A program made the position numbers and the translations under genes. Positions 3,254-53,368 of a DNA stretch of 64,000 bases are shown here, piece after piece; positions within the stretch are counted from its first letter, which is position 1; the number at the start of each line of letters is the position of its first letter. Where the stretch lies: assembly GCA_965222525.1 (NCBI GenBank), contig OZ244955.1, positions 640,140 through 704,139 on the forward strand, read 5' to 3'. Below the pieces are notes generated by a model. That model was not told the DNA's origin. It saw only the letters and a program-made list of their open reading frames with translations, and searched no databases. The DNA comes from Rickettsiales bacterium (lineage in GTDB: Bacteria; Pseudomonadota; Alphaproteobacteria; Rickettsiales; UBA8987).

Positions 3254-3333
3254 AGGGGCTTAAATATACCAGGTTAAAATACTATAATATACTACCGCTA
3301 AAACCTGTAACCTGTCACTTAAAACCTGAAATA

Positions 3334-9265: not shown

Positions 9266-9275
9266 ATTATTTCCT

Positions 9276-9467: not shown

Positions 9468-9565
9468 ATACGGCATTATGCGACATTTCTGTCGCATTGT
9501 CAATTGTATAACATACTCGGTAAAAAAATCTGGCAAAATCCGATTTTAGGCGGTAGGTTGCGGGG

Positions 9566-18411: not shown

Positions 18412-18717
18412 GGGTAGGGTATTTTCAGCGTAACTGAAAGCAATTTAATAGGAATTTTTCATAACTGCAATATGTTACGGATAAATTTGCTGAAGCCAAC
18501 AGGCGATATATGGTATAATAACAGTAATTCAACCTGAAATATCTACCTGCCTACTGCTCCCCCGCTTTACAGGGGAGCAGATGAGACAAGGGCTTAAGCC
18601 CGCAGTCGAATCGCGGGGGGTAGTGAGTAAGTGGAAAATAGAAACAGGAATGAGTTAGCTTCTGTTCCAGTTTCTATTTTCCAGTTTCCACACCTCCCGC
18701 CAATTCGCCAAGATGAC

Positions 18718-19413
18718 ATGAAACACAATACAGCAAATCGGCAAAATGGGGTCACACTGATAGAGCTCAGTATTGTTATAGTTATACTGGGGCTACTGGT
18801 TGGTGTGGTTATGGGCGGGCAGTCATTGCTGCTTAGTATGAAAATTCGTTCCGTAGTTGCCAATGTTAAAGGATTCATGATTGCGACTGATAATTTTAGA
18901 GAGAAATATAATTCTCTGCCCGGTGATATGGTTGATGCTTCCGAATATTGGGCTGACTGCGACACCCCTGCAACGCTTTGCAATGGTAACGGCAATGAAC
19001 GGATTGAATCCGGCGGTGAGGATTTACGGGTATGGCAGCAGCTTGCCGATAGCGATATGATAGAGGGGGATTATACCGGCTCGGGCTCGTTTGAGGTTGA
19101 TGTTAATCTCCCGCCTTCAAGATTCACCGATAGCGGTTATATCATGTATTATAATTCGGCTCTCTATGGTAGTAGTAGCAATGCTATACAGTTTGGGGGT
19201 ATTTCATCTACTGACACCAGGCTACCAATATTAAATGCACGAGATGCAATGTCGGTTGATATATTAATGGATGACGGGCTGGCCGCCAGCGGTGATGTAG
19301 TTACCACCGATGCCAATGGTTACACCGGCTGTGTTGATACCTCTGCTACTCCCAACAAATACACTCCCGATGATGAAACCGCCCTCTGCATAATGTATTT
19401 CTGGCTTCAGTAA
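18718..19413 (+). CDS. prepilin-type N-terminal methylation-domain protein (type IV pilin / pseudopilin-like), paralog 1
   Basis: NGVTLIELSIVIVILGLLVGVVMGG is a class III signal / hydrophobic N-terminal helix. It shares F.EKY.SLPGDM.DAS..W and a GNGN-type motif with 30098..30811. No pilus assembly genes are nearby. Confidence 0.7.
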   Translation: MKHNTANRQNGVTLIELSIVIVILGLLVGVVMGGQSLLLSMKIRSVVANVKGFMIATDNFREKYNSLPGDMVDASEYWADCDTPATLCNGNGNERIESGGEDLRVWQQLADSDMIEGDYTGSGSFEVDVNLPPSRFTDSGYIMYYNSALYGSSSNAIQFGGISSTDTRLPILNARDAMSVDILMDDGLAASGDVVTTDANGYTGCVDTSATPNKYTPDDETALCIMYFWLQ

Positions 19414-25197: not shown

Positions 25198-26206
25198 AAA
25201 TAATATAGAAAAAATAATGGTAATAAATCTCGGCGGTACCCGTGAAATGGCGCTGGGGACTGCCGCTTTTGCCGCTATCCGCGAGTTTCATCCCAATGCG
25301 CATATAATCCTGCTTACCACCGCCAGATATGCTGAATTCGGCCAGCAATCGGGTTATTTCAATGAAATCTGGGTTGACCCGCTGCTCAACTGGTATGATG
25401 TACCGCAAGTCTTACATTTTCTGAAAAAGCTGCGCAACTCCGGTATTCAACTGGTATATGATTTGCAGAATGTCCGTCGCAGTAATATGTATTTCCGTTG
25501 CATGGGACGCAACAAACCCCTGTGGAACAGCAGCAATATTAACTGGTGTTCGCATTATTATGACAATCCCGATGCCCATCTGATGCATTTTCTCGACCGG
25601 CAGGCCGAACAGCTTATGGTTACGGGTATGGAATTTATACCGCCGCCCGATATATCATGGCTGCAGGCGGATATATCGAAATTTTCCTTTCTGGAGACAG
25701 GGCAGCCTTATGCATTGCTGGTGGCAGGCGGGCTTGAGGATGAGAAACAAAGCCGCTGGCCGGAGTCCGGCTATGTCGAGGTGGCGGAATGGCTGGCGGA
25801 GATTGGTGTATTGCCGGTATTTATCGGGGATGAAGCAGACAAGGCGCTGATAAAATCGATAGACCGTTCCTGTGTGCATATTGACATTGCCAATCTGGCC
25901 GGACGAACGAGTCTGGCCGATATTGCCGAACTGGCCAGGGGTGCGGTATTTGCTATAGGTGCCGGTGACGGTTACATGCATCTGATGGCACTGACCGGCT
26001 GTCCGTCGATTTTTCTTTATTCCGGCTATTTCGTACAGGAAATCCACACCCCGATAGGTGATGCGATAAATATCATGTATCAGCGCGAACCCTCGCAAAT
26101 CCTCCCCAGCACGGTTATAGACAGGCTGATTGAGATGTTCGGCCTTAACGAGGGGGAGGAGGCGCAAGATAATGAAGATGAGGAAGCCGAAAATGACAGT
26201 GCCTAA
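25190..26206 (+). CDS. family 9 glycosyltransferase (heptosyltransferase-like) with an acidic C-terminal tail
   Basis: IMVINLGGTREMALGTAAFAAIREFHPNAHIILLT and ...ELARGAVFAIGAGDGYMHLMALTGCPSIFLY fit the GT9 pattern. It overlaps the GT2 gene by 8 nt. Confidence 0.65.
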   Translation: MTENNIEKIMVINLGGTREMALGTAAFAAIREFHPNAHIILLTTARYAEFGQQSGYFNEIWVDPLLNWYDVPQVLHFLKKLRNSGIQLVYDLQNVRRSNMYFRCMGRNKPLWNSSNINWCSHYYDNPDAHLMHFLDRQAEQLMVTGMEFIPPPDISWLQADISKFSFLETGQPYALLVAGGLEDEKQSRWPESGYVEVAEWLAEIGVLPVFIGDEADKALIKSIDRSCVHIDIANLAGRTSLADIAELARGAVFAIGAGDGYMHLMALTGCPSIFLYSGYFVQEIHTPIGDAINIMYQREPSQILPSTVIDRLIEMFGLNEGEEAQDNEDEEAENDSA

Positions 26207-29200
26207 TGTCTTGGTGCTGGGCTGCGGCTGGAGTGGTCGTGGTTATGTTTATCATGCCCGTTTTTGCGGGGGAGGAGGCCGTTGTTCCTGGAGGCCAGGT
26301 CGTTATTGTCAGCATCAAGGCCGAGGTCACGCAGACCATCCACTATATTCTGCATTTCCTGTTCCTGTCTGGTGAGTGGCTTGTCTTTTTCGGCAGATTT
26401 TTCCTCGGACTTTTCAATATTTTTATTCTCTGCAATTCTCTGGTCAACATATTCCTGTATCCTGACCATATTGCGTTTCTTTTCTTCATCCGTATCGCCC
26501 AGCGGCAACAGCCCCTTTTCTATGAAAGGCTCCAGATTCTGCTCATTGAGGGATTGCAGGCCGGTTACATTACGCAACCTGTCATAGTTAAATTTATGGC
26601 CTTCTTCCTTCAGCTCCTTGATATCATCAAGCAATTCACGTTTGGCAGGGTCGAGGTCGATTATCCTGTCACGGCCGGATTCGGGCAGTTCAACCCCCAT
26701 ATCCCTGGCAACCCGCTCGGCGTTTTCCTTGATTACCGCCACTTGTGCGATCATCATATTGGAAATATGCATTTTCTTCTCGGCATCCTTACCTTCCGTT
26801 TTGAAAACCTTGCCATCGGAAAACTCCAATTTGTCCCTTTCCTCGGGGTTAAGCGGATTGACAAAACTCACATGTTCGGCAGATTTTTTCAGCACTTCCG
26901 CAGCCTTGTCATCACCATCCTTTTCGGCAATTTTGCCAAGCAGATATTCAGCCTCACGGGATGTGGCAAAATGGTTTAATTCCTCAAGCTGCTGCGCATC
27001 CATCCTTATATCACGTAATTCGTCCAGATTAACCGACTGGCCTTTTTCCAGCTTCAGCCCAAGCTTTTCCTGCAATTCCGCATCTGATATACTTTCCTCT
27101 GGCAGTGCGGCAAGCCGTTCCACCAAATCTTGCATATGCTGTGAACGGTTATCCTGATTGGCCAGATGTTGCGATGTTAGCTGGAACACATCCTCTGCAT
27201 CAGATGGAATCAGGTAGCGTGCGGCACTGACTTCCTTACCATCCACATCGGCATAAAACTCAATGGTTTTCCTGGCTTTGCCGTCATGGCCAAACGCACC
27301 GTCCGCACGCTCCACCTCACGATATTTCAGCTCACCCTCCATGCCGAAACCATCAGAATCATCCTGCAGCGCCCTGTTGATTTCCGTCATGGCCTGTTTA
27401 CGCTCCTGTTCTCCCAGTGCGATGAATTTATTCTCGGCCTCGGCCAGGGTACTCATCTTGAACACACCCCATGCAACCCTGCTGTACGCCTTGTCATCCT
27501 TCACCAGAACCGACCACACATCTTCCCCCCTGGCAAACTGCATATTACCCTGCTCGACAACCTCAAACAGGGTCGGGGCAATCCTGCCGGTAGTATTCTC
27601 ATCGCCGGTCACCAGAACCGCCATCTCATGGTCACTGATTGCCTTGCCGTGATCGGTCAGGTAGTCCATATTATAAAGAATATCCTCCTTCCTGGCCGCG
27701 ATATTACGCTGGTTATGCAGATGCTCATCCACTTCTTCGGCACGCCGGCCAACCGCCATCAATGCCGCAGCCGACATACCGCTCAGATAACCCTGCTCGA
27801 TATATTCCTGCGGAGACATCTCAACCTCACCAAAACCGTCATCAAATTTAACCCTGATTTCGCCGGAACTATCACCGCCCTCACTATCGCCCTTCGCAAG
27901 CTGTGCAGCATCTTTCTCACGTTTTTCCTCATCACCGAACAGGATAAAGGCCAGCCATGCCGCATCCATACCCGCCTGCTGCATAAGCTTGTCGATTTTC
28001 TCCCTGGTTTCGGTTGCCAGCCTGGTTTTCTCCTTCTCCTGACCGGGAGTTTTGGTTTGCTCGGGAGTAATTTCCGCATCATATATATTGTCATTAACCT
28101 GCTCCAGCACATCTTTATCAAATTTGTGCCTGCGCCATAAATGGGTCGATACCAGAGCAGTACCAATACCGCCCTCCACAGCGTCATCCCTGTATTGTGC
28201 AACCACCATACCGCTGTCATTGCGGAACACATCGGTAATACCACTGCCGGGTGCAAGATTGTTGATAGTATCCGTTATCCGCTTGCCTGCCTCCTCGGCG
28301 CTCATGCCGCTGCGCTCGGCCTCACGCATAAGGAAATCCGCACGATACTGGATATCATCGGCAATATCGGCATTTTCGAAAACCTCACCCATCTTCTGAA
28401 GTGAACGGTAATGGCTCTCCTCACGGCCAACATCCTTATGCGCAACCCACAGGAATTCCTTCAGCCCGTAAACGGTGGCAACCGTCTGGGCGGTTTCATT
28501 GGCCTCAACCAGAAAACCATGACTGTCACTATGCCAGATATCCTTGATATACCCCTCGCCAAGCGCAGGGTCCTTATCCAGCACCGACTTGATATCATCA
28601 CCCGTAATCCCGATCTTCCGCTCGGCATTGATAATATTGCGCTCTAACGCTGCCGCATCCTCCATCGCCGGAGCCTCATGCGGCATCATCATCCGCCATT
28701 TGGGGTGATATTGCGAATTAAACACCCGTACCAGATCATCTTTATTGTAAAGCTGGAGGTCAACTTTCTCGGTCTTGCCGAAATCATTGGTTATCGGTAC
28801 CTGATGCGCTACACCAATCTCAAAGTCAAATTTGTAATCCTTGTTTTTGGCAATTTGCTGCAAATCCCTGCCATGCATATTCATGGTCTGGGCAAGCTTG
28901 TCGAAAAATATCTTATTCTCGTCGGAACTGTTCTTGGGGTCAATGCCGCTATCCTGCATTATCATCGAGCCGGCCTCCTCTCCCATATTAACCATATTGG
29001 CCAGCATGAGGTTATATCTATGCTCCTGTTCCGACTCCATCGCAGCGGTAAGCTGCCTGACCTCATCCTTGCTTTTGCCTTCCTTCTTCAGGGATTTCTC
29101 GTATTGTTTGAGTTCCTTCTTCTGATGCTCCTTTAAATCCTTGCCGAATGTATTATCAAACTGCTCCTTTACGACACCAAACACAGTAGTGTGCTCGTCA

Positions 29201-37450: not shown

Positions 37451-37870
37451 CTACTTATTATCCGCTTCGGCGATGAAGGCATCGATCACCGACTGGGCTA
37501 TGTCAACCTCGCCCTGGGCGGCTTCCTTTTCCTTCTCGGTTTTTGCCTGCTGATGGAGCTTCTTGGTGGCCTCCAGACGCTTTTCCATGGCCTCTCTGGT
37601 ATGATTGGCAAAATCATAGGCCTCGGTAGCCAGTACCGTGCAGCGTTCATTGGTTATCTCGGCCACACCGCCGGCCACCAGATAGCGTGCCACTATCTCA
37701 TTGCCCTGATATGAGCGTATCACCCCCGGACGCAGATTGGATATCACCGGCGCATGTCCGGCCAGAACACCCATATCTCCCTCAGCCCCCGGCACAACCA
37801 CCATCTCCACCTCATCGGAGGAGAGAAGCTTCTCGGGTGTAACCAGGTCGAATTTTAATGACTGCGTCAT
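37451..37870 (-). CDS. atpC: F1 ATP synthase epsilon subunit
   Basis: LVTPEKLLSSDEVEMVVVPGAEGDMGVLAGHAPVISNLRPGVI is the epsilon beta-sandwich pattern. It is the last gene of the atp F1 set. Confidence 0.9.
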   Translation of the reverse strand: MTQSLKFDLVTPEKLLSSDEVEMVVVPGAEGDMGVLAGHAPVISNLRPGVIRSYQGNEIVARYLVAGGVAEITNERCTVLATEAYDFANHTREAMEKRLEATKKLHQQAKTEKEKEAAQGEVDIAQSVIDAFIAEADNK

Positions 37871-38335
37871 GATAATAGATGATAGATTATGGATGATAGA
37901 ATTAAATCTTTATTTTGCTTCGTAAATTTTGCAACATCCTTATTATAATTTCGTATTCATTATTCCAGTTATTAAAGGTTTTGGTATCTATATACCCCAA
38001 GTCAACACAATAGCACAACCAGATTTGCATTTCACTTGCGGAACCTATTGCTATGGAAATAAACCGCTTGAATTCTGCCTTTGAATGAGATTGTTTTACG
38101 AACCCCTCGGCCAGATTTGCACAAACAGACTTACTCGCCCTGCGCACCTGCTTGGCAAGGTCATACTGCTCTATCTGCGGAAATTCAAGACTTGCCTTAT
38201 GAATTTCCAGGGAGACAGCATAGGCTTTTTTAAAAACATCAAGGTCTCTTGCACTTTTAACCAGTCTTGAAGTTATATCCGTAACGTCTGCCATATTTTC
38301 CCCTCCATCATCCATCATCTATAATCCATCATCTG
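37871..38335 (-). mobile_element. IVS-like cassette 1: four-helix-bundle ORF bracketed by inverted repeats
   Basis: Arms at 37878-37899 (gatgatagattatggatgatag) and 38312-38333 (reverse complement gatgatggattatagatgatgg) match at 19 of 22 positions. All three differences are A/G. The cassette abuts the atpC start codon. Confidence 0.45.
37902..38294 (-). CDS. four-helix-bundle protein (23S rRNA intervening-sequence protein / Avd-like family)
   Basis: ARDLDVFKKAYAVSLEIHKASLEFPQIEQYDLAKQVRRASKSVCANLAEGF...AIGSASEMQIWLCYCVDLGYI matches the family pattern (F.vw..A..l...iy..t..fP..E.y.L..Q.rRAa.Si..NIAEG). The start is taken at MADVTD. The upstream MMDDGGEN is encoded by the repeat arm. Confidence 0.75.
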   Translation of the reverse strand: MADVTDITSRLVKSARDLDVFKKAYAVSLEIHKASLEFPQIEQYDLAKQVRRASKSVCANLAEGFVKQSHSKAEFKRFISIAIGSASEMQIWLCYCVDLGYIDTKTFNNWNNEYEIIIRMLQNLRSKIKI

Positions 38336-38360
38336 TTTATAGAACATATAATCGCCAGAT

Positions 38361-38735
38361 TCAATATGGTAAATTATCGGGAGCGACTCCGATATAGTCA
38401 GGCTCGGGGTTGGTGGTAAACTGAACGGCTTTTATTTGCTCCTCTCCCTGCAGAAATGCCTTGCCAACCCGGTGCATGCCGTCCATTACACGGCCATCCG
38501 AGGCAAGAATTATAGGAAAACTCAAGTCAGCGTCCCGGATTAGACCTGCATGCTCAAATACGCTTCTGCATGTAGGTGTTTTGCCATCAAGGAACCAGAA
38601 TGGTTCGTCAATTTCCCTTATTTCAGAAAGAGGAACCATCTTTGGTACGAACCCGCCGGAAAGCTCTATCAGACGGTCGATATCCCACGCTTTCAACCCC
38701 GCCCCGGACGGCTGGAAGTGATATTGCTTTCTCAT
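38361..38735 (-). CDS. small ParB/sulfiredoxin-like (ParB N-terminal domain) protein
   Basis: PIILASDGRVMDGMHRVGKAFLQG resembles the DGxHR core of ParB-N/Srx-fold proteins. This assignment is from memory of the motif only. Confidence 0.45.
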   Translation of the reverse strand: MRKQYHFQPSGAGLKAWDIDRLIELSGGFVPKMVPLSEIREIDEPFWFLDGKTPTCRSVFEHAGLIRDADLSFPIILASDGRVMDGMHRVGKAFLQGEEQIKAVQFTTNPEPDYIGVAPDNLPY

Positions 38736-38769
38736 GATGGTTGGGTGTTACAACTGTTTTTGTATTCCC

Positions 38770-39414
38770 TTAAAATCCTAAAGCACGTTCAGCACTTTTT
38801 AGCTCCTTAAGCTGGTTCTTAACACCAAGAGCTTCTCCGATTTTATTAGTGATAATACCTTCAATGATTTCTCTGGTTGATCTATCAGAAACCTGTTCTG
38901 CTTTATCATATGCCTCACCTATTGTTTTGCTCGGCAGTAGAGCTCCTAAAATTGTCGCAATGTTTTTATTGGTTCTATGCTCATATGTAACTTTCGCCTT
39001 CATTTCATTGTTATCAATTTCTAATGAACGTAGATTATCTCTATTCTTGTTTATGAAGTTGAACTGGGTTTCATAAGCACGAGCTCCTTCACCATACTTG
39101 GCTATAAACTCATTAAGCTTACCTTGTGTATTAGTTATAACTGCGCCAGGGTCTACTCTTGAAGCGCCATCAAAGGTATGCAAAGCGTTGCTTTCTATAA
39201 TGTTATAGTTGCCTCTTTCTCCGTATTCTTCTTTTGCTTTCTTGATAATCTGGTTTCTTGTAAGACTTTTTTCATTTTCCAAAGCAGAAGCAATTGAATA
39301 AATCGCAGCATTAACACCGGGTTGGATTTCATCAAAAGATGGATCCCCTGTTGCTAAATCTTTAGTGGACTGCGCCCAAGCTTTCACCTGATTGTTTTCT
39401 AGTTTGTCTGACAT
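38770..39414 (-). CDS. orphan protein (214 aa), cysteine-free, no signal peptide
   Basis: The start is chosen at MSDKLENNQ, preceded by AAGGAG with a 7 nt spacer. I recognise no family motif. It has its own promoter-like motif at 39489-39521. Confidence 0.5.
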   Translation of the reverse strand: MSDKLENNQVKAWAQSTKDLATGDPSFDEIQPGVNAAIYSIASALENEKSLTRNQIIKKAKEEYGERGNYNIIESNALHTFDGASRVDPGAVITNTQGKLNEFIAKYGEGARAYETQFNFINKNRDNLRSLEIDNNEMKAKVTYEHRTNKNIATILGALLPSKTIGEAYDKAEQVSDRSTREIIEGIITNKIGEALGVKNQLKELKSAERALGF

Positions 39415-39488
39415 TTCTCTCTCCTTAAAGTTAAAACCTGCCACCAATCCCCCCATGGAAAAGGTAGGCTGTTTTGTTTATGGGAGGG

Positions 39489-39521
39489 AGTATAGCAGAG
39501 AAATGTTAAAGTTTTATGACA
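39489..39521 (-). promoter_or_regulatory. extended -10 promoter-like motif shared with 29761-29793
   Basis: The minus strand reads TGTCATAAAACTTTAACATTTCTCTGCTATACT (TGnTATACT), about 70 nt upstream of the 39414 start. Confidence 0.45.
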
Positions 39522-39653
39522 GGATTACATTTTTTTGAAAAAATTTTCAGGAGGAGCCTAACCAGTTGGAATATATAGTTTTATTTTTGCAAAAATAATT
39601 TTGACAATCTGTCACTAGCAGTAAATATACCTGTATTTCCTTAAATAGTGTCG

Positions 39654-39872
39654 TCAAATTCTACCATTATGCGCTTCCACATAAGAGCGCAGAACGGCAT
39701 TCATATAGGACTGATAACCTTTTCCCTGTGATTTAAACCAGTCAACAACCTCTTTATCTGCACGGAAGGATATCATCTGCTTGGGAGAAGTATTGTGTAA
39801 TATCTTCAAATATTTCCAGAAATCACCGGTCAGGTCAGGAATATCGGAATAATCAATTTCGGAATCAGGCAT
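39654..39872 (-). CDS. BrnA-family antitoxin-like protein (no BrnT partner adjacent)
   Basis: MPDSEIDYSDIPDLTGDFWK...ISFRADKEVVDWFKSQGKGYQSYMNAVLRSYVEAH matches the BrnA pattern (DSEIDYSDIPE...ISIRLD.DVL.WFK..G.GYQT.IN..LR). The longer ORF start (39917, MMDDRGE) lies inside the repeat. Confidence 0.65.
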   Translation of the reverse strand: MPDSEIDYSDIPDLTGDFWKYLKILHNTSPKQMISFRADKEVVDWFKSQGKGYQSYMNAVLRSYVEAHNGRI

Positions 39873-39901
39873 CTCAGCCAATTCCCTAGCTGTTTTTTCT
39901 C

Positions 39902-39932
39902 CTCTATCATCCATCATCTATAATCCATCATC
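39902..39932. repeat. third copy of the GATGATGGATTATAGATGATGG word, abutting the atpD stop
   Basis: ctctatcatccatcatctataatccatcatc is identical to 38303-38333 except at one base. It is inverted relative to 37878-37899. Confidence 0.8.
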
Positions 39933-39938
39933 CAGCAG

Positions 39939-41372
<1,434 letters not shown>

Positions 41373-41386
41373 TTACTCCTTGAAAA

Positions 41387-41857
41387 GAAACTGGAAACTG
41401 GAAATTAGAAACTGGAATTTAATTACTTTCTGTCTTTAATCTTACTTCTGAGATTTTGCAGCATCCTGGATACGATATTATATTCCTCAACCCACTTGTT
41501 ATGCTTGTTTTTATCGATATAACCGAGATCAAGGCAATATTTTATCCATATTTTCATCTCTCCGCATGAACCTATCGACATAGAAACGAATCGCCGAAAT
41601 TCCGGAGTAGAATGCACTTGCTTATAAAAACCTTCTGCTAAATTTGCGCATACAGACTTGCTAGCCCTGCGCATCTGTTTAGCAAGGTCATATTGTTCTA
41701 CCTGTGGAAATTTAAGGCTAGTTCTGTGAATGTCCAGAGAAACAGCGTATGCTCTTTTGAAAACTTCCAAATCCTGAGGCTCTCTGACGTAACTGGAGAT
41801 GCTCTCAACATTACCCTCTTCCATACTTCCGGCTTCTAGTTTCCAGTTTCCAGTTTC
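41387..41857 (-). mobile_element. IVS-like cassette 2: four-helix-bundle ORF bracketed by a 24 nt inverted repeat
   Basis: 41387-41410 is gaaactggaaactggaaattagaa. The reverse complement of 41834-41857 is gaaactggaaactggaaactagaa. They match at 23 of 24 positions. The unit is 471 bp. Confidence 0.55.
41423..41824 (-). CDS. four-helix-bundle protein (23S rRNA intervening-sequence protein / Avd-like family), paralog of 37902..38294
   Basis: PQDLEVFKRAYAVSLDIHRTSLKFPQVEQYDLAKQMRRASKSVCANLAEGF...SIGSCGEMKIWIKYCLDLGYI is roughly two-thirds identical by eye to the other copy. The start is taken at MEEGNV. The upstream METGNWKLEAGS is encoded by the repeat arm. Confidence 0.75.
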   Translation of the reverse strand: MEEGNVESISSYVREPQDLEVFKRAYAVSLDIHRTSLKFPQVEQYDLAKQMRRASKSVCANLAEGFYKQVHSTPEFRRFVSMSIGSCGEMKIWIKYCLDLGYIDKNKHNKWVEEYNIVSRMLQNLRSKIKDRK

Positions 41858-41865
41858 CATATTTA

Positions 41866-42600
41866 TTATCCTTTCTCCGCAACCACCATCAATGACACCC
41901 CGAATGGAAATCTTATCTTTCCTATAAAAAACCTCTCGCTGCCAAAAATTTTTATCAGCAGGCTGTTAACGAAATTTCCCGGCAGGGTCAGGTTCGATAC
42001 CTTGCTTTTTTTATTTCTGAATTTCTCCACCATCCTCACCAGTGCTATCGGTGGAAACAGCCAGAAATTAAAATAGCTGGCATATTTTATATTAAAGCCC
42101 TCCGCTTTTAGCAATCCGGTCAGTCCCGCCCTGTTGTAGCGACGGAAATGATGATGGTCCGTATCATGTGCCGACCATAAAAACTGAAATGCCGGAACGG
42201 TCAGGAAAATCATACCATTATCTTTTAGCTGCCCTTTCAGTACCTCCAGTGTTTTCTGGTCATGTTCTATATGCTCAAGCACATCAAATGCAACAATTAA
42301 ATCGAACTTTTTATCCGCAAATGCAGTATTATCAGGCAATTCGATAGATTCGACATTTTCAGCAACTCCTTTTTCCCTTGCCACCTGTCTTGCGGTTGCA
42401 TCATATTCCGCTGCATAAACCCTGCCATATTGCGACAGCATCTCCAGATTGCCGCCACTACCGCAGCCTACTTCCAGAATTTCCGCATCCTGCGGAAGCT
42501 GCAACCTGTCAAGCATACGCCTGATTATCTTCCTGCGGGCAACAAACCACCAGTGCCTGCCCTCCAGCTCCGCCATCTTTATGTAGGCCTCGCGCTCCAT
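41866..42600 (-). CDS. class I SAM-dependent methyltransferase
   Basis: HWWFVARRKII plus SAM motif I ILEVGCGSGGNLEML and a post-I acidic residue. A GGGGAG Shine-Dalgarno sequence lies 5 nt upstream. It sits between atpG and atpD on the same strand. Confidence 0.8.
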   Translation of the reverse strand: MEREAYIKMAELEGRHWWFVARRKIIRRMLDRLQLPQDAEILEVGCGSGGNLEMLSQYGRVYAAEYDATARQVAREKGVAENVESIELPDNTAFADKKFDLIVAFDVLEHIEHDQKTLEVLKGQLKDNGMIFLTVPAFQFLWSAHDTDHHHFRRYNRAGLTGLLKAEGFNIKYASYFNFWLFPPIALVRMVEKFRNKKSKVSNLTLPGNFVNSLLIKIFGSERFFIGKIRFPFGVSLMVVAEKG

Positions 42601-42622
42601 TACGCTCCCCTATTATAAAAGT

Positions 42623-43525
42623 CTACAATGCCTCTGCGCCCGAGATGATCTCGGTCAGTTCGGTTGTAATAGCAGCCTGGCGGGTACGGTTATATTGCAG
42701 GGTTAAATCCTTTATCATCTCACCCGCATTGCGAGTGGCGTTATCCATCGCAGTCATCCGTGCCCCCTGCTCGCTTGCCGCATTCTCCAGCTGGGCGTGG
42801 AAAATCTGCACCGCAATATTTCTGGGCAGAAGCGCAGATAAAATCTCCTCCTCGCCAGGTTCATATTCATATACGGCGGCTACACCATCCTCGGCCTCTT
42901 CCGCAAGAACCCCATCCATCTCCAATGGAATCAATTGCTGGAAGGTTACTTTCTGGGTAAGTGCCGATTCAAACTTGTTATACACAACCGAGCAGGAATC
43001 AATATCACCAGCCTCAAACATGGTAATAACCTGATTCGCAACCGCTTCCGACTGCACATATTCCGGCTTTGCCTGACTGGAAGTATCTATACGTTCCGAC
43101 ACATTATTCTCATAACCATGTTTTAGCTGTTCCCAGCCTTTCTTACCGACTATCATCAGTCTGGCCAGCTTGCCCTTGCCTTCCATTTCGGTGATTTTCT
43201 GCTTTATCGCCCGCACCAGAGAACTGTTCAGCCCGCCGCAAAGCCCGCGGTCAGAAGTAACCGCTATAATCAGATGATTTTTATCGGCAATATCTCCCGC
43301 CGCATCACGCCTGCCCGAAAGAAGCGCAGGGGAATTTTCCGGATCAGCCTTGGTCGCCAGAGCCGCAAGCATACGCTCCATCTTTTCGGTATATGGCCGT
43401 GCCGCCTCCGCACGCTCCTGCGCACGCTTGAGCTTGCTCGCAGCCACCATCTTCATCGCCTTGGTGATTTTCTGCGTAGACTTAACACTACTTATACGGT
43501 TTTTCAGGTCCTTGAGATTTGCCAT
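42623..43525 (-). CDS. atpG: F1 ATP synthase gamma subunit
   Basis: MANLKDLKNRISSVKSTQKITKAMKMVAASKLKRAQ and the C-terminal QAAITTELTEIISGAEAL are gamma signatures. Confidence 0.93.
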   Translation of the reverse strand: MANLKDLKNRISSVKSTQKITKAMKMVAASKLKRAQERAEAARPYTEKMERMLAALATKADPENSPALLSGRRDAAGDIADKNHLIIAVTSDRGLCGGLNSSLVRAIKQKITEMEGKGKLARLMIVGKKGWEQLKHGYENNVSERIDTSSQAKPEYVQSEAVANQVITMFEAGDIDSCSVVYNKFESALTQKVTFQQLIPLEMDGVLAEEAEDGVAAVYEYEPGEEEILSALLPRNIAVQIFHAQLENAASEQGARMTAMDNATRNAGEMIKDLTLQYNRTRQAAITTELTEIISGAEAL

Positions 43526-43758
43526 CAGATATGTAGTTCCGTAGTCTGGTTGCTTTCCTCGTTAACTACCAAAAGGCTGGGTTCATCCTTACCTTTCAGT
43601 TGTTCATTAGCATTAAGCAACTCAATTCCATATATTTTCCCATCAGGAGACAGGTCAATATTCAACTCGCTACTGACCGATATGGTATCTACCATCCCGT
43701 CTTTCTCACGTAGTTTCATATACGCAATATTATGTTTTGGGTCGTATGTCAGTTTCAT
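43525..43758 (-). CDS. DUF2283-family protein (putative antitoxin partner)
   Basis: MKLTYDPKHNIAYMKLRE...DLSPDGKIYGIELLNANE fits the DUF2283 pattern (YD.E.D.LYI.L...D....G...GIEIL.AS). Its TGA overlaps the atpG ATG (TGATG). Confidence 0.65.
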   Translation of the reverse strand: MKLTYDPKHNIAYMKLREKDGMVDTISVSSELNIDLSPDGKIYGIELLNANEQLKGKDEPSLLVVNEESNQTTELHI

Positions 43759-43765
43759 CTTATCC

Positions 43766-44029
43766 TCAGAAGTATTTTACTATAACAGTGATAACCAGCC
43801 AATTTTCTTCCTCCTCTACTGCAAAAACCTCAAGCTGCTTATTATCATAAAACTTCCTGTTCCAGTGAGAGGAAAAATTAAAAGTTCTGCGGAAACCTAT
43901 TCTACCATACTTTGCAGAAAATTGCTCTCCATTTTCAACTGTAGATATAACCTCTTCTCTGGTTGCACCCCTTTCAACCATTCTTGCTTCAGCATGGGGA
44001 TGAAATTTCACATCCATGATTCTTTCCAT
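43766..44029 (-). CDS. DUF4258-family protein (putative toxin partner)
   Basis: FHPHAEARMVERGATREEVISTVENGE fits the DUF4258 N-terminal pattern (H...RM..R.I....V). Its ATG at 44029-44027 overlaps the atpA TGA (TGATG). Confidence 0.6.
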   Translation of the reverse strand: MERIMDVKFHPHAEARMVERGATREEVISTVENGEQFSAKYGRIGFRRTFNFSSHWNRKFYDNKQLEVFAVEEEENWLVITVIVKYF

Positions 44030-45564
44030 CAACTTTTCGCAAACACCTTAACAAATTTATCCAACGCGCTGCGGAGTTCCTTTTCGCTGTCTTCGGATAA
44101 TTTGCCTTCATTGCGGATTACATCCAGCAACCCCTGGTGTTTGCCATGCATTTCGCTCAGGAATTCCTTTTCAAAACGGGTTACATCCTTTGCATCTATA
44201 TCATCGAGATAACCATTTACACCGGCAAAGATGGAAACCACCTGCTCCTCCACCAGCAGCGGTGAATACTGGTCCTGCTTGAGCAGTTCCACCAGACGTG
44301 AACCGCGTGCCAGAAGTTTTTGCGTAGCCGCATCAAGGTCGGAGCCGAATTGTGCAAATGCCTCCATTTCACGGAACTGCGCCAGTTCCAGCTTAATCTT
44401 GCCTGCCACCTGTTTCATACCCTTGATTTGCGCTGCCGAACCTACCCTCGATACCGACAGTCCAACATTTACCGCCGGACGTACACCCTTATAAAACAGC
44501 TCGGTTTCAAGGAATATCTGGCCGTCGGTAATTGAAATCACATTAGTCGGGATATAGGCGGATACGTCACCGGCCTGGGTTTCGATAACCGGCAGGGCGG
44601 TAAGTGAACCGGCACCTTCTTCATCCGACATTTTAGCAGCCCGCTCAAGCAGCCGCGAGTGCACATAGAATACATCGCCCGGATAAGCCTCACGCCCCGG
44701 CGGACGGCGCAGCAATAGCGACATCTGACGATAGGCCACCGCATGTTTGGACAAATCATCATATGCAATCAGCGCATGCTTGCCGTTATCACGGAAATAC
44801 TCACCCATTGCACAGCCGGTATATGGTGCGAGGAACTGCAGCGGCGCCGATTCGGATGCGGTTGCGGCAACTATAATTGAATATTCAAGCGCACCTTCCT
44901 CCTCCAGCTTTTTGGCTATCTGCGCTACAGTCGAGCGCTTTTGCCCGATACACACATAGATACAGTAAAGTTTTTTACTTTCATCATCGCCTGCATTGAT
45001 GGATTTCTGGTTGAGGAATGTATCAAGAATCACGGCGGTCTTGCCGGTCTGACGGTCGCCGATAATCAACTCACGCTGGCCGCGCCCTACCGGAATCAGC
45101 CCGTCAATCGCCTTGATACCGGTCTGCACCGGCTCATGCACCGATTTACGTGCGATAATACCGGGAGCCTTTACCTCGATACGGGAACGGTTTTCGGTTA
45201 TCACCGGCCCCTTACCGTCGATAGGATTACCCAGCGCATCCACTACGCGGCCAAGCAGTTCGGGTCCTACCGGTACATCAACAATCCGGCCGGTACGCTT
45301 GACCGTATCGCCCTCCTTGATTTCCTTCTCGCCACCGAACAGCACTACCCCGACATTGTCCTCCTCGAGATTCAGCACCATCCCCACATTACCGCCGGGA
45401 AACTCCACCATCTCACCGGCCTGCACCTGGTCCAGCCCATATACGGTTGCAATACCGTCACCGACCGACACCACCTGCCCGATTTCTGCCAGTTCCGCCT
45501 CGGTTGAGAAATTGGCAATCTGCTTCTGCAAAATGCTTGATATTTCCGCTGCCTGAATTTGCAT
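44029..45564 (-). CDS. atpA: F1 ATP synthase alpha subunit
   Basis: [19 protein letters not shown] (P-loop) and [23 protein letters not shown]. Confidence 0.96.
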
Positions 45565-45617
45565 ATTATTCTCCTTTTATTACGTGTTTCTACCCGTTTT
45601 TCTTCGACTGTCGAGCG

Positions 45618-45842
45618 CCTCCCCCGCTTGCGGGGGAGGTAAGAAATTCTAGAAATCCATGTCCTCCGTAGCTTTAGCGCAGGAGGATTGATTTCAGAAT
45701 TTCTGGTGGGGGAATGTGTAAGTGTAAAGTGTTGAGTGCTAAGTCTCCTGCTGCAAACTCTCAGCACTTTAACCATTCCCTCCCCGAAAATCTGGCAATC
45801 AAAGATTGCTCAGATTTTCTCCCCTCCCGCAAGCGGGAGGGG
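45618..45842 (+). repeat. hairpin-terminated structured repeat family B, copy 1 (225 bp)
   Basis: Left terminus CCTCCCCCGC-TT-GCGGGGGAGG and right terminus CCCCTCCCGC-AA-GCGGGAGGGG are each perfect 10 bp hairpins. Internal hairpins include AGAAATTCT..GAATTTCT and GAAAATCTG..CAGATTTTC. It is collinear with 51643-51858. Confidence 0.85.
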
Positions 45843-45854
45843 TAGCTCCAGCTA

Positions 45855-46412
45855 TTACCCGGCTTTCTTCAAATAAACCTTTACCCTGTCCAGTTTTCCG
45901 CTCAGCGAGTCATCCAGCATTTGTGAGCCGATTTTTACAATCATCCCGCCGAGTATATCTTCGTCAAGCTTTTCCTCAACAGCCACTTCCTTGCCGGTCA
46001 TTTCTTTAAGTTCATTACCTATGCGGGTTATATCTGCCTTATCAAGCTTGTTTGCAACCGTAATTTCCGCCTGAACCTCCCCGCGCGCATTTGCAGCAAG
46101 CTCGGAGAAAGACGCACATATATCCGGCAAAAGCGATAACCTGCGGTTTTCCCCCAGTAATGCACAAAACTGGCCAATCAGTTTATCCGCCTTGATTTTC
46201 TTTACAATATCACCAATAGCAGCAGAAAGCTCTGACCTGGAAGTAGTCGGATTGCTCAAGGTTTTCTGTAATTCCTGCGATGACGCAATCACCGAATCAA
46301 GTTCATTTAATCCGGCTTCGATTTCTTCCAGCTTTCCCCCGGCCTTGCCAATCTCGAACAGCGCCTTTGCATAACGCCTGCCCAATACCAATTTCCCGAC
46401 TTTCCTTGCCAT
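45855..46412 (-). CDS. atpH: F1 ATP synthase delta subunit (OSCP)
   Basis: GRRYAKALFEIGKAGGKLEEIEAGLNEL... and the C-terminal GGMIVKIGSQMLDDSLSGKL fit the delta/OSCP pattern. It is the first gene of the F1 operon. Confidence 0.85.
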   Translation of the reverse strand: MARKVGKLVLGRRYAKALFEIGKAGGKLEEIEAGLNELDSVIASSQELQKTLSNPTTSRSELSAAIGDIVKKIKADKLIGQFCALLGENRRLSLLPDICASFSELAANARGEVQAEITVANKLDKADITRIGNELKEMTGKEVAVEEKLDEDILGGMIVKIGSQMLDDSLSGKLDRVKVYLKKAG

Positions 46413-46523
46413 AAACCCAGCCCGTATAACCAGTTGCGAGCGTCACTTAGCATATGAATCCCCGCTTTGCAACTCATAAAGTTGGTAAATTATCTGGGCA
46501 ACGGTTATCTATTTACATATTTT

Positions 46524-46553
46524 ATTATAACACCTATTTTGCTTGCTATACAA
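46524..46553 (-). promoter_or_regulatory. candidate sigma-70 promoter for the atpH operon
   Basis: The minus strand reads TTGTAT-18 nt-TATAAT with a TGt extended -10 (ggtgttataat), about 110 nt upstream of the atpH ATG. Confidence 0.35.
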
Positions 46554-46611
46554 ATCTGGCGTGACACGACAATAACTCACCAGACTCCAGACTCTAATCA
46601 CCAGCCACTAA

Positions 46612-48684
46612 ATGCCCGATTCTTCAGTACAGAATGAAAAACCCAAGGCAGCTTTCAGCAAGGAAAAGCTGGTTGAGATGAAGAAGGGTAATCTTGATCC
46701 TAACTATAAAATAAAATTCAATAGTGTAATTTCAGATTTGAGTTCTGATTTTGCCAATGCCTATGAGGCGGAGAATATCCATGCAACCAGGGACTCAGCC
46801 CCGCTTTATGCACTGGTATTCAACGTCAATTTCCCGATACGGATGAAGGCAATTGAGACGCTGCGCAAGATACAGCATCCCAGCCTGGTACAGGTGGTGG
46901 CTTTCGGCAAGACGATAACCGCCGGCACCAAGGCCGAGCGTTTTGCGGTGATTCTTGAGCGCCCGCAAGGGGTAAGGCTTTCACAGGCGCTTAAGGACAG
47001 TTCTCCTTTCAATGAGCTTTATGTTGCGGATAAGGTGATGGAGCAGCTTGCTGGGGCGCTGGCACTGCTGGCGGAGAATCGCATAACCCATGGTCGGATT
47101 AACCCTGATAATATCTTTTACAACAAGGCTGCCGCACGCCTGATTATCGGCGAGCCGATATCGGAATTCTGTGGCTATAGCCAGATGGCGGCGTATGAGG
47201 ATATTGACCGTGTTGTAGCGCATCCTGCCGGCAAGGGTGACAGCGACCCCAAGGCGGATTACTTCGCCCTCGGCATGGTGCTGCTATTCATGCTCACCGC
47301 CAGACAGCCATTTGCCGGCAAGGATAATGACAGCATTATCGACACCCGCTTTGAGCATGGCTCACATGAGGCGGCGATATCCGAGACCCTCGCACTCACT
47401 AAAATCCGCCTGTCGACCCGCATCCATACTCTGCTCAAAGGCCTGCTTTCCGATAATTCGGCGGAGCGATGGGGCAGGGATGAGCTGGATTCATGGATGA
47501 AGAAGTTTGAGATTATCGCCCAGGCATCGAAGATGCACAAGCTTGCCGCTACCGGATTTATGTTTGATGACAAGGAGTATTTCGGCATCCGCTATCTGGC
47601 ATATGACATAGGGCGCAAATGGAATATAGCCAAGCGCACATTGAAGATAGCCGATTTATCGCGCTGGTTCAGCCTGTCACTCAAGCGCCCCGACCTGTCG
47701 GAGAAGGTGGAATATCTTCTTGACCACACCGGCAACAGCGAGGTTATTCTGCCTGACCATAAAATCACCCGCATAATCTCGATTCTGGACCCATCCGGCC
47801 CGATTCGCCATAATGAGCTTTCCTGTCGTATTTCCGGCTTCGGCAATATGCTTGCCAGTTGTTATATGGGCAAGGACAAGGCGAATATCCAGAATATCGG
47901 TGCGGTATTTGCCGAGGGTCTGGTGGAGAACTGGATACGCCAGCAGCCTGATCCGGAATTATTCAGCTATAGTATGCTTGGCTGGAGCCCTGCCAAGATA
48001 CGGGTATATATGCGGCGTTCCTCGATGGGATTTGGTATGGAGCGTGCGTTATACGAGTTTAATAAATTTCTGCCCTGCCAGAGTAAATTGATGGCCGATA
48101 AATATGTATCGAACCTGGCGGATTTGCTGGTTACGCTGGATAAATCGGCGGAGAGCCTGGGCGAGAAGGATGCGCAGGATCGTCATCTTGCGGCTTTTAT
48201 CGCCAGCCATATTAATCTGACCGATGAGATGAAAATCAAGAGCCTGCAGAATTTCCCGCGGATAGCCAAGCATCCGGGGGTTATGATGCTGGGATTGCTG
48301 ACGGTTGCGCAATCGGAAGCGAGGGTTAAGTCGGTCAAGGGTGTTACCGAATGGATGAAGGGTCTGATATCGGCTTTCTCCGAGGATCTGCACAGCAAAT
48401 TCATCCGCAAGGAGATGCAGGGGAAACTGCGGGTAGCGGCAAAGGATGGCAAGCTGGCCACGTTATTTCAGGCGATATCGAATCCGGTATTTATCCAGCG
48501 TGATGCATCGGGTTTTCGTGAGGCCAGGATGCAGTACAAGGCGCTTGGTGCGCAGATACAGCAGCTCAAAACCCAGGGACATATCAGGCGGGTGGCCTAT
48601 CAGCTCGGCCTGCGCATATCGGTCACCATCTCATACCTGGTCTGCATAGCCTCGGCGTTGTATGTGTATTTCGTGAGCGGCTAA
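46612..48684 (+). CDS. protein-kinase-fold protein lacking catalytic residues (predicted pseudokinase) with a long C-terminal region and a C-terminal TM anchor
   Basis: ITHGRINPDNIF stands in place of HRDLKPxN, so the catalytic Asp and Lys are absent. LIIGEPIS stands in place of DFG. A subdomain IX-like DYFALGMVLLFMLTARQPF is present. The terminal segment ISVTISYLVCIASALYVYFVSG is hydrophobic. Confidence 0.55.
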   Translation: MPDSSVQNEKPKAAFSKEKLVEMKKGNLDPNYKIKFNSVISDLSSDFANAYEAENIHATRDSAPLYALVFNVNFPIRMKAIETLRKIQHPSLVQVVAFGKTITAGTKAERFAVILERPQGVRLSQALKDSSPFNELYVADKVMEQLAGALALLAENRITHGRINPDNIFYNKAAARLIIGEPISEFCGYSQMAAYEDIDRVVAHPAGKGDSDPKADYFALGMVLLFMLTARQPFAGKDNDSIIDTRFEHGSHEAAISETLALTKIRLSTRIHTLLKGLLSDNSAERWGRDELDSWMKKFEIIAQASKMHKLAATGFMFDDKEYFGIRYLAYDIGRKWNIAKRTLKIADLSRWFSLSLKRPDLSEKVEYLLDHTGNSEVILPDHKITRIISILDPSGPIRHNELSCRISGFGNMLASCYMGKDKANIQNIGAVFAEGLVENWIRQQPDPELFSYSMLGWSPAKIRVYMRRSSMGFGMERALYEFNKFLPCQSKLMADKYVSNLADLLVTLDKSAESLGEKDAQDRHLAAFIASHINLTDEMKIKSLQNFPRIAKHPGVMMLGLLTVAQSEARVKSVKGVTEWMKGLISAFSEDLHSKFIRKEMQGKLRVAAKDGKLATLFQAISNPVFIQRDASGFREARMQYKALGAQIQQLKTQGHIRRVAYQLGLRISVTISYLVCIASALYVYFVSG

Positions 48685-51642: not shown

Positions 51643-51858
51643 CCTCCCCCGCTTGCGGGGGAGGCAAGAAATCCAGGGATTTTCAATCCTTAGGATTTCT
51701 GGTGGGGGAATAAATAAGTGCAAAGTGTTGAGTGCTAGGTCTCCTGTTGCAAACTCTCAGCACTAAACACACAGCACTCGGCACCTCATCATTCCCTCCC
51801 CGAAAATCTGGAAAGCATAGCTTTCTCAGATTTTCTCCCCTCCCGCAAGCGGGAGGGG
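51643..51858 (+). repeat. hairpin-terminated structured repeat family B, copy 2 (216 bp)
   Basis: It has the same termini and order of hairpins as 45618-45842. It fills the gap between the M16 peptidase stop (51860) and the trpE start (51618). Confidence 0.85.
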
Positions 51859-51859
51859 G

Positions 51860-53191
51860 TTACTCCGGATACAATTTCCCGGTCACGGAGCGTTCGGGTT
51901 TGAAGATATATTCTGCGGCAGCGGTAATTTGCGCAGAAGTTACATTATCAACCATAACAGGCCAGTTTTCAATATATGATGTATCCAGGCCGGAGACCAG
52001 TACCCTGCCATATATATGTGCCATATTCTGCAATCCATCCTGCGCATAGATAGCCTCTGCTTTCAGCTTTTTCTGCGCACGCTGTAATTCCTTATTTGTA
52101 ACCCCCTCATCCAGAATTGCCTTTAATTCCTGTTTTACCGCTGCTTCCACCCTGGCAAAATCAACATCCTTTGCCGGCACGACATACAGTGTAAATGAAG
52201 TCGGTCCCAGTGAAATATCATCATAATAAGCATAGGCCTGCAATGCCAGTTTCTTTTCCACTACCAGCGATTGATACAGCCTGCCGGTTTCGCTGCCACC
52301 CAGCACTTCCGCCAGCAATACCAGCGGCAGCGCATGTTCGCTCTTGCCATATGTACTGCTCGGTGCCAGATACATCCTTATCCATTCCGGCTCCCTTACC
52401 TTCTCATCCTGCACTGTAACCTCACGAAATGCCGAAGGTTGTGGCTCCATGGGGATTTCCCTTGGCGGGGTATCCTGCGCCGGGATATTGCCGTAATATC
52501 TCTCCGCCAGCGGACGCAATTCCTCTGCCGTAATATCGCCTGCAACAATAAGCACTGCATTATTCGGTGCATAATATTTACGGTAAAATGCCCCGGTATC
52601 ATGCAGTGTAAATTGCTCTATCTCATGCCGCCAGCCGATTGTAGGCTTGTTATATGGATGGTTGAGGTAAAGTGCCGCCCGCATCTGCTCGGTGAGCTTG
52701 TTGCGCGGCTTGTTATCAATCCGCGAACTGCGCTCCTCCAGCACAACATCACGCTCACGGGTAACCAGCTCTTCATCAAGCTGTAGGCCGGTCATCCGGT
52801 CAGCCTCCAGCATCATCGCAAGTGCCAGATTCTCCCGCGCAATATTCTGGAAATAGGTGGTGTTATCCTGTGTGGTGAATGCATTATCATTACCGCCGAA
52901 ATTGGCTATCAGTGAGGAGAATTCACCAGGCTGCAGATTTTCCGTCCCGCGAAACATCAGATGCTCCAGAAAATGCGCTATACCGGATTTGCCAGGCTCT
53001 TCGTCAATTGCCCCGACCTTGTACCATAACATATGCGAAACCGCCGCCACCCTGGGATTGGGAATCACATAAACCTCCAGCCCGTTACCCAGCGTAAAAT
53101 TCTCCACCCTGGGCGGATTGGCATGGGCAGGCGACAGGCAGACCAGTAACAGTACGAGAATCGGGAGGATGTTTGTTATGATTTTGTTCAT
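51860..53191 (-). CDS. M16 family zinc peptidase (pitrilysin-like)
   Basis: The HFLEHLMF (HxxEH) zinc site, then ...E...NAFT. Signal peptide MNKIITNILPILVLLLVCLSPAHA from the start at 53191. Confidence 0.85.
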   Translation of the reverse strand: MNKIITNILPILVLLLVCLSPAHANPPRVENFTLGNGLEVYVIPNPRVAAVSHMLWYKVGAIDEEPGKSGIAHFLEHLMFRGTENLQPGEFSSLIANFGGNDNAFTTQDNTTYFQNIARENLALAMMLEADRMTGLQLDEELVTRERDVVLEERSSRIDNKPRNKLTEQMRAALYLNHPYNKPTIGWRHEIEQFTLHDTGAFYRKYYAPNNAVLIVAGDITAEELRPLAERYYGNIPAQDTPPREIPMEPQPSAFREVTVQDEKVREPEWIRMYLAPSSTYGKSEHALPLVLLAEVLGGSETGRLYQSLVVEKKLALQAYAYYDDISLGPTSFTLYVVPAKDVDFARVEAAVKQELKAILDEGVTNKELQRAQKKLKAEAIYAQDGLQNMAHIYGRVLVSGLDTSYIENWPVMVDNVTSAQITAAAEYIFKPERSVTGKLYPE

Positions 53192-53204
53192 AGTTACGAT
53201 TACT

Positions 53205-53360
53205 GTCACCCCGGATGGTATGTTTTCTCCAAATTTTAATTTGGTAAGAAAACACCATTCCCGGGGTTATTATATAAGTCACGGAATTGTACAGGTAACC
53301 CCGAGAACGTTATTTTGTTACCAAATCACAGATTTGGACAAAATATACGTCCGGGGTGAC
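53205..53360 (-). repeat. structured palindromic repeat family A, copy 3 (156 bp, inverted orientation)
   Basis: Its reverse complement aligns along its full length with 37278-37433. The right-arm apical stem is CCAAAT/ATTTGG instead of CTGAATC/GATTCAG. Confidence 0.85.
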
Positions 53361-53368
53361 ATACATTA

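Follow-up and report, generated by a model that had tools for sequence, protein, structure and literature searches.

The operon for the F1 part of the ATP synthase (atpH-A-G-D-C) lies on the minus strand of a 64,000-nt stretch of DNA from a Rickettsiales bacterium (contig OZ244955.1), and it carries additional DNA at each of its four junctions, which measure 290, 503, 1253 and 2068 bp. This stretch is called the window; coordinates are positions in it, and loci labelled L### are comparison loci. The best explanation of the arrangement, to which we give a probability of about 0.6, is that this highly transcribed operon has on several independent occasions taken up selfish or accessory DNA in its own orientation, and that read-through of this DNA is tolerated. 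Three kinds of insert would have taken part: a hairpin-bounded miniature repeat, open reading frames (ORFs) of toxin-antitoxin (TA) or other accessory type, and two elements resembling the intervening sequences (IVSs) of 23S rRNA genes. The inserts would persist because they have left the operon unbroken.

The gene order, strand and four junction lengths given in an earlier sequence-only reading of this DNA matched the coordinates exactly. Its count of nine inserted ORFs was too high, and a recount gave eight (two in atpA/atpG, two in atpG/atpD and four in atpD/atpC), all of them co-oriented with the atp genes as it had claimed. The identities it proposed for the inserts were borne out by domain models, inverted repeats, a predicted fold and a repeat copy. 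The atpA, atpD, atpH and atpC genes were confirmed by NCBIfam and Pfam models.

We compared the junctions with 462 others from 160 atp loci, comprising 80 alphaproteobacterial loci (GTDB representatives) and 80 metagenomic loci. The 307 alphaproteobacterial junctions had a median length of 2 bp and four of them exceeded 200 bp; the 155 metagenomic junctions had a median of 29 bp and nine exceeded 200 bp. Four junctions all longer than 200 bp were found in 0 of the 91 complete operons in the comparison sets. The window is an extreme outlier in junction size, far beyond chance.

IVS-type elements in two atp junctions

The two ORFs that had been described only as four-helix-bundle ORFs are parts of IVS-type elements of the kind known from 23S rRNA, a point missed by the sequence-only reading. 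Both ORFs matched PF05635 (Table 1), the family of the intervening-sequence proteins (IVPs) of 23S rRNA, and exceeded the score cut-off of TIGR02436. Their products, IVP1 in element 1 and IVP2 in element 2, were 63 to 64% identical to each other and 58 to 65% identical to rRNA-borne copies. S23p/IVP-bearing IVSs occur in the 23S rRNA of Coxiella burnetii, Leptospira and Brucella; the C. burnetii IVS, which RNase III excises, measures 428 to 444 nt, with a stem of 28 bp and heptamers of the sequence GACAGAT (PMC4990558). Like it, the window elements (463 and 471 bp) hold the ORF in the loop of a terminal stem of about 30 bp, have arms made of tandem heptamers 5' of the start codon, and carry the Shine-Dalgarno (SD) sequence inside the left arm. 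Unlike the C. burnetii copies, which are decaying, the IVP ORFs of the window are intact and conserved. Unlike the 23S IVSs, the window elements lie in intercistronic spacers and not in helix 25 or 45 of 23S rRNA, and no rRNA was found in the window with Rfam. By analogy, excision here would split an mRNA, unlike the fragmentation of an rRNA that is held together in the ribosome.

In element 2, the left arm (41857-41827) consists of GGAAACT heptamers (x3), the right arm spans 41417-41387, the IVP ORF occupies 41860/41824-41423, and the SD of atpD stands 3' of the right arm. In element 1, GATGATG-like heptamers make up the left arm (38333-38296), which carries the SD of the IVP ORF (38294-37902), and the right arm (37900-37871) lacks G and abuts the ATG of atpC with its last base. 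The arms of element 1 are about 30 nt long and 83 to 87% complementary. When segments of about 500 nt, each spanning one element, were folded, the minimum free energy (MFE) structure was closed by the arm stem in both cases, with z -5.1 for element 2. An ungapped flanking-helix score, calculated for 61 genes of the window, placed IVP2 and IVP1 first and second (22 and 15), whereas the other genes reached at most 9 with a median of 6. This score was used because flank-to-flank duplex energy (95-nt windows), by which the IVPs ranked 2 and 4 of 61, separated them poorly from GC-rich genes.

The left arm of element 1 is present a second time. This outer copy begins 6 nt 3' of the atpD stop codon and also codes for the first codons of the BrnA-like ORF, and it is predicted to pair with the right arm as well as the inner copy does (-35.7 and -35.6 kcal/mol). 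The insert in atpD/atpC therefore consists, in order, of the outer left arm, cargo (1.56 kb), the inner left arm, the IVP and the right arm; such an enclosure of extra cargo by a duplicated left arm is unlike the 23S IVSs. If the outer copy pairs, a single helix has the stop codon of atpD and the start codon of atpC side by side at its base.

An ORF-less hairpin at 18629-18691 has a 14-nt loop and 22-nt arms built, like those of IVP2, from GGAAA(C/A)T heptamers. It lies just 5' of a pilin-like gene (18712-19413, N_methyl motif) and could be either a remnant or a "mini-IVS" devoid of cargo.

The contexts of eight IVP homologues (58 to 65% identity), taken from the longest contigs, were inspected. 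Four lay in 23S rRNA, three in atp junctions and one after rpsA, and the junction differed among the atp-borne copies in each sampled genome. All mRNA-borne IVPs were co-oriented with their neighbours and all had flanking arms. In L168 the stem was weak by the energy and shuffle test (z +1.0), and a 26-nt inverted repeat (73%) was present. No IVP was found in the remaining atp loci (0 of 160). We compared the heptamer arms of the window elements with those of the rRNA-borne elements in L164, L169 and L170; rRNA-borne elements had arms of 35 to 44 nt composed of GTCAGAT/GACAGAA heptamers. The arm sequence varied from element to element and the pairing was retained. The most similar pair of atp-borne elements was that of IVP2 in the window (GGAAACT/AGTTTCC) and the copy in L174 (GGTAACT/AGTTACC). 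Between these two, every change in the left arm was compensated in the right arm, which suggests that selection acts on the helix and not on a terminal sequence recognised by a protein.

In the IVP tree, rRNA-borne copies clustered together, mRNA-borne copies stood on long separate branches, and there was no atp-specific clade. IVP2 of the window was nearest to the copy in L174, and IVP1 was nearest to the rpsA-borne copy in L173, with which it has a GATGATG-type arm in common. IVP1 and IVP2 belong to different element lineages, so they represent separate acquisitions and not a local duplication. The 16S-23S spacer of L170, where the 23S rRNA gene carries an IVP-type IVS, also contains a small ORF with a GIY-YIG domain (640-879) between tRNA genes.

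The IVPs share the four-helix-bundle superfamily with Avd of diversity-generating retroelements (DGRs), and weak matches were obtained (NF033474, E 2e-3; phrog_3206, E 2e-6). Unlike a DGR protein, they scored 18 bits with the Avd model, far below its cut-off of 80. No reverse transcriptase ORF and no long direct repeats were found in 37000-47000, and an Avd/DGR reading of the IVPs was rejected since neither a reverse transcriptase nor a template/variable repeat pair is adjacent.

Other inserted genes and dispersed repeats

The atpA/atpG junction is occupied by a DUF4258 ORF and a DUF2283 ORF, which are co-oriented and separated by a 7-nt spacer. DUF4258 is catalogued as a toxin family of the RelE/ParE superfamily (BECR fold) with no assigned activity (PMC11980606). 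Like type II TA systems of the RelE/ParE type, the window pair is made up of small neighbouring genes in one orientation whose products have the expected Pfam domains, and its nearest homologues are free-standing two-gene cassettes. Many metagenomic copies of DUF2283 shared 60 to 72% identity with the window protein, and both of those inspected (L081 and L082) were free-standing DUF4258-DUF2283 pairs in unrelated neighbourhoods. Unlike type II TA systems, the window pair has no space for an autoregulated promoter and is threaded into the coupling chain of an essential operon. It is joined to its neighbours by 1-nt stop/start overlaps (TGATG), one between the atpA stop and the DUF4258 ATG and the other between the DUF2283 stop and the atpG ATG. 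The DUF4258 start overlaps the atpA stop, so there is no room for a promoter of the cassette's own.

The atpG/atpD junction holds, beside element 2, a methyltransferase gene that gave generic matches only in NCBIfam, PDB and PADLOC; the PADLOC search for defence systems returned this generic match and nothing else. The atpD/atpC junction holds three ORFs beside element 1. The first is BrnA-like, and unlike BrnTA systems it has no BrnT: no BrnT (PF04365) partner was found among the ORFs of the junction, and its neighbours are atpD and the orphan ORF. The orphan found only itself and one weak match (29% identity, E 6.5e-5) among 1.84 billion representative proteins and had no match in Pfam, PHROGs or PADLOC. 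Its single-sequence AlphaFold model had a predicted local distance difference test (pLDDT) score of 45 and was therefore not used for a fold search. The 124-aa ORF had no Pfam match even at E up to 5, and its family, which is well conserved and has no name, counts more than 3,700 homologues at 60 to 69% identity across phyla, with an invariant DGMHR motif. In Foldseek, the top matches of its model were all ParB-N or sulfiredoxin (Srx) proteins (probability up to 1.00, TM-score about 0.4). From the model and its GxxR-type motif, the protein is predicted to be a member of the ParB/Srx superfamily.

The GC content at third codon positions (GC3) was 0.29 to 0.42 in six of the eight inserted ORFs versus 0.50 to 0.64 in the atp genes, which is consistent with a foreign origin of the six. 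The methyltransferase and the ParB/Srx-like ORF had a host-like GC3 of about 0.50.

Most of the 290-bp atpH/atpA junction is filled by a 225-bp repeat. Its length and terminal hairpins were as the sequence-only reading had described them. The second copy (about 51643-51864) is 82% identical, a fragment lies near 3185-3234, and the RNA fold of the repeat is strong (-125.8 kcal/mol, z -8.9). With multiple non-coding copies and hairpin ends, this filler is similar to miniature inverted-repeat transposable elements (MITEs) and repetitive extragenic palindromic (REP) elements. A second family, a palindromic repeat of about 160 bp, has one copy directly 3' of atpC, where it is possibly the 3' end structure of the operon, and other intergenic copies at 53201-53361 and 3063-3255. 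Like REP elements and bacterial interspersed mosaic elements, MITEs, the Rickettsia palindromic elements and the REP elements of E. coli, the window repeats are short, non-coding, multi-copy and hairpin-forming, and lie between co-transcribed genes. Unlike the REP and MITE families, they have no sequence kinship to a described family (no Rfam match) and number two to three copies in 64 kb. The window had no Rfam match at the gathering threshold and the operon none at E up to 1. In E. coli, REP-type elements in intercistronic spacers can stabilise upstream mRNA segments.

Table 1. Features of the atp region in the window and contexts of IVP homologues in comparison loci
Feature	Position or locus	Strand	Evidence or remark
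atpH (delta/OSCP), first F1 gene	45855..46412	-	PF00213 OSCP, E 1e-49
225-bp dispersed repeat, two GC-rich hairpins at ends	45618..45842	-	inverted-repeat pair I11
atpA (alpha), strong SD AAGGAG	44029..45564	-	TIGR00962 E 1e-251; SD duplex -8.7 kcal/mol
DUF4258 ORF, predicted RelE/ParE-superfamily toxin	43766..44029	-	PF14076 E 1.7e-7
DUF2283 ORF, predicted antitoxin partner	43525..43758	-	PF10049 E 3.5e-11
atpG (gamma), weak SD	42623..43525	-	nearest relatives 63% identity; SD duplex -3.5 kcal/mol
Class I S-adenosylmethionine-dependent methyltransferase, own SD, GC3 0.51	41866..42600	-	Methyltransf_23 E 3e-19
IVS-type element 2, 471 bp	41387..41857	-	PF05635 E 2e-30; 31-nt arms, 90% complementary
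atpD (beta), SD AGGAG	39939..41369	-	TIGR01039 E 3e-253; SD duplex -8.0 kcal/mol
Element 1 left arm, second (outer) copy	39895..39932	-	36/38 identical to 38296-38333
BrnA-like antitoxin ORF	39654..39917	-	PF14384 E 1e-13
214-aa orphan, strong SD, GC3 0.29	38770..39414	-	197-bp AT-rich spacer 5'
124-aa protein, predicted ParB-N/sulfiredoxin fold	38361..38735	-	model pLDDT 83
IVS-type element 1, 463 bp	37871..38333	-	PF05635 E 8e-32; arms I4/I5
atpC (epsilon), no SD	37451..37870	-	PF02823 E 2e-26; SD duplex +1.8 kcal/mol
Palindromic dispersed repeat, one long hairpin	37277..37437	-	pair I1; fold z -9.7
IVP homologue inside 23S rRNA gene	L164-167, L169, L170		Rfam LSU match spans insertion
IVP homologue inside 23S rRNA gene	L175		flank sequence only
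IVP homologue in atpG/atpD	L168
IVP homologue in atpA/atpG	L171 and L172
IVP homologue in atpD/atpC	L174
IVP homologue between rpsA and sppA	L173

Small ORFs were also seen in the atp junctions of comparison loci, in L171 and L174 at junctions other than those that hold their IVPs. L171 has a co-oriented 140-aa ORF without a Pfam match (4375-4797), which overlaps the atpG stop by 4 nt, and L174 has co-oriented small ORFs without Pfam matches at 441-719, 852-1061 and 4495-4872. Three related contigs of metagenome Ga0247727 (L133, L146 and L147) have a DUF433-containing pair in atpH/atpA, present in one copy, in two or in a decayed state, and HicA in atpG/atpD. This is copy-number turnover of TA cassettes in the atp operon of an unrelated lineage.

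The operon of the window is flanked downstream by a Methyltransf_28 (PF02636) gene (36193-37185) and upstream by a divergent 690-aa gene with a protein-kinase domain (46612-48684). Farther away, a 1150-aa ORF (26203-29655) had no Pfam match at E up to 0.001.

Expression of the interrupted operon

The signals for translational coupling have not simply been lost, which the sequence-only reading had missed: there are TGATG overlaps, and SDs have been kept for atpA and atpD. From its overlap, atpG is predicted to be translationally coupled to DUF2283. In the window, as in L168 and L171, the atp gene downstream of an IVS-type element has its SD 3' of the right arm and 5' of the start codon. The exception is atpC, which has no SD and whose ATG adjoins the G-less right arm.

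A consensus scan found no terminator-like site on the coding strand from atpH to atpC. The co-orientation of the inserts, the lack of coding-strand terminators and the lack of room for promoters are consistent with hitch-hiking on atp transcription, as the sequence-only reading had supposed. The co-oriented, terminator-less inserts would be read through from the atp promoter, and the downstream atp genes would keep or regain signals of their own: the TGATG overlaps, the SD before atpA and, for atpD, the SD after the right arm. RNase III, by analogy with the rRNA IVSs, would probably cut the IVS-type stems and release the IVP segment. Such cuts would divide the transcript at atpG/atpD and atpD/atpC and leave the cistrons unharmed. 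The stoichiometry of the subunits would then depend on translation initiation and segment stability for each gene, and not on uninterrupted coupling. For atpC there are two speculative routes: coupling to the stop codon of the IVP ORF 31 nt upstream, or SD-independent initiation on an unstructured AU/C-rich leader after cleavage.

Origin of the inserts and alternative explanations

That the operon has been a repeated landing site, as proposed earlier, is supported by the foreign GC3 of inserts, the distinct IVP lineages, the differing cargo, the AtpD tree and the free-standing kin of the DUF4258/DUF2283 pair. In the AtpD tree, the insert-bearing operons of the window, L003, L168, L171 and L174 fell within one broad Rickettsiales-like group, and the compact operons of L061, L010, L002 and L008 were interleaved with the insert-bearing ones. 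The best atpG match had 63% identity (uncultured Rickettsiales metagenome-assembled genomes (MAGs) among GTDB representatives) and the best atpH match 40% (JGI metagenome collection). The comparison with relatives suggested by the sequence-only reading could thus be made only at long range.

It is unlikely that the arrangement is ancestral and functionally integrated, the inserts having long co-evolved with the operon, for example as regulators or modifiers of the ATP synthase such as the methyltransferase. This would account for L003, a Rickettsiales MAG whose atpG is 56% identical to that of the window and which has DUF4258 and DUF2283 genes at the same atpA/atpG junction, with the same 1-nt overlap onto atpG (TAATG). 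The seamless TGATG overlaps in the window point to co-adaptation over a long time, GC3 is host-like in the methyltransferase gene and the ParB/Srx-like ORF, and within one broad clade four genomes have IVPs in their atp operons. However, the DUF4258 and DUF2283 proteins of the window and L003 are 51% and 53% identical, whereas the window DUF2283 reaches 60 to 72% with free-standing copies, and the window copy stands at rank 38 of 120 for the DUF2283 of L003. This low identity and rank fit independent capture better than inheritance, and on these sequence comparisons inheritance appears the less likely. Moreover, operons are compact in the sister taxa L061, L010 and L002, the junction used by IVPs differs per genome with no atp-specific clade, cargo varies between genomes (atpG/atpD of L003 contains a Rap1a-like ORF and MntA/HepT), and most inserts are foreign in GC3.

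There is likewise only a small chance that the atp operon is not special, in a genome saturated with TA cassettes, MITEs and IVS-type stems that accumulate neutrally. Elsewhere in the window there are a HicAB pair (8834-9536), a complete ParDE pair (31311-31799; ParD-like 74 aa and ParE 87 aa, co-oriented, 72 nt 3' of tamB, a further TA cassette added onto a housekeeping operon), copies of both repeat families at 3.1, 51.7 and 53.3 kb, and the ORF-less heptamer-arm hairpin described above. TA modules and MITEs are common in this genome generally, a point missed by the sequence-only reading, so the atp operon stands out by enrichment and is not the only site. Real enrichment is nevertheless supported by ORF density (eight accessory ORFs in the 9 kb of atp versus about four in the other 55 kb), by the location of both window IVP ORFs inside atp, and by recurrence in other genomes, where IVP homologues reappear in atp, rRNA and rpsA operons and unrelated lineages also load atp junctions. 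The atp inserts are also all co-oriented, whereas the HicAB pair is anti-oriented between two plus-strand genes.

More improbable is that transcription of the operon has broken up into several units, with promoters brought by the inserts and with stems that serve as processing or termination sites, so that several transcripts are made without hitch-hiking. The AT-rich spacer of 197 bp 5' of the orphan, the strongly structured RNA in atpH/atpA and after atpC, and several promoter-like matches on the minus strand of the region agree with it. Yet the matches to the sigma-70 consensus numbered 23 against a shuffle expectation of 16 ± 4, not clearly above it, and none fell in the spacer before the orphan, where the sequence-only reading had placed a promoter-like motif. 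The coding strand has no terminator-like site, as described above, and overlaps of 1 nt and gaps of 5 to 31 nt leave no promoter room at most boundaries. An assembly artefact, with chimeric joins or collapsed repeats, is very improbable: the arms and MITEs in the junctions can confuse assemblers, but the source contig is 2.11 Mb long, the boundaries are codon-precise (the TGATG overlaps, and an arm ending at an ATG), all five atp genes are intact with atpA and atpD 75 to 86% identical to relatives' copies, and independently assembled genomes have the same kinds of insert in atp junctions.

Several points weigh against independent colonisation with tolerated read-through. The scans for promoters and terminators relied on consensus sequences and are crude, and a promoter could lie in the AT-rich spacer 5' of the orphan. 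Read-through, cleavage by RNase III and the way in which atpC is translated are inferred. The eight contexts belong to the nearest homologues of an atp-borne IVP, and this relatedness may bias the sample. A close relative was sought among GTDB representatives and JGI metagenomes and none was found, so the age and order of the insertions cannot be reconstructed. The pair of L003, at the same junction and with the same atpG overlap, could reflect old inheritance just as well. The load is partly a genome-wide trait, since the window has TA cassettes and copies of these repeats outside atp too.

A wider and more tentative idea, which we hold to be possible but doubtful, is that IVS-type elements are not peculiar to rRNA but form a mobile class of their own, specialised in operons with the highest transcription (23S rRNA, atp and rpsA). 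Their removal from the RNA by RNase III would be the reason why they are tolerated and would in effect make them intervening sequences of polycistronic mRNAs; they would gain cargo between duplicated arms and rewire genes such as atpC, with the Avd-like protein binding the heptamers and mobilising the excised RNA by a retro-type pathway.

No reports of IVS-type elements or TA cassettes in atp operons were found in the literature, the coverage of which was partial, so this is weak evidence of novelty. What the window presents is an essential, stoichiometry-sensitive operon that holds about 4 kb of foreign DNA across all its junctions with its genes intact, together with the apparent means: co-orientation, absence of terminators, rebuilt stop/start overlaps and retained SDs. 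It ties the 23S rRNA IVSs, which have long lacked an explanation, and their conserved four-helix-bundle ORF to protein-coding operons, namely atp of at least four distant genomes and the site after rpsA. The nature of IVSs, their movement and the question whether they owe their harmlessness to excision by RNase III become testable with mRNA as the host RNA. The atp junctions are recurrent homes of TA cassettes in several lineages, and this bears on where selfish modules find safe and well-expressed harbours.

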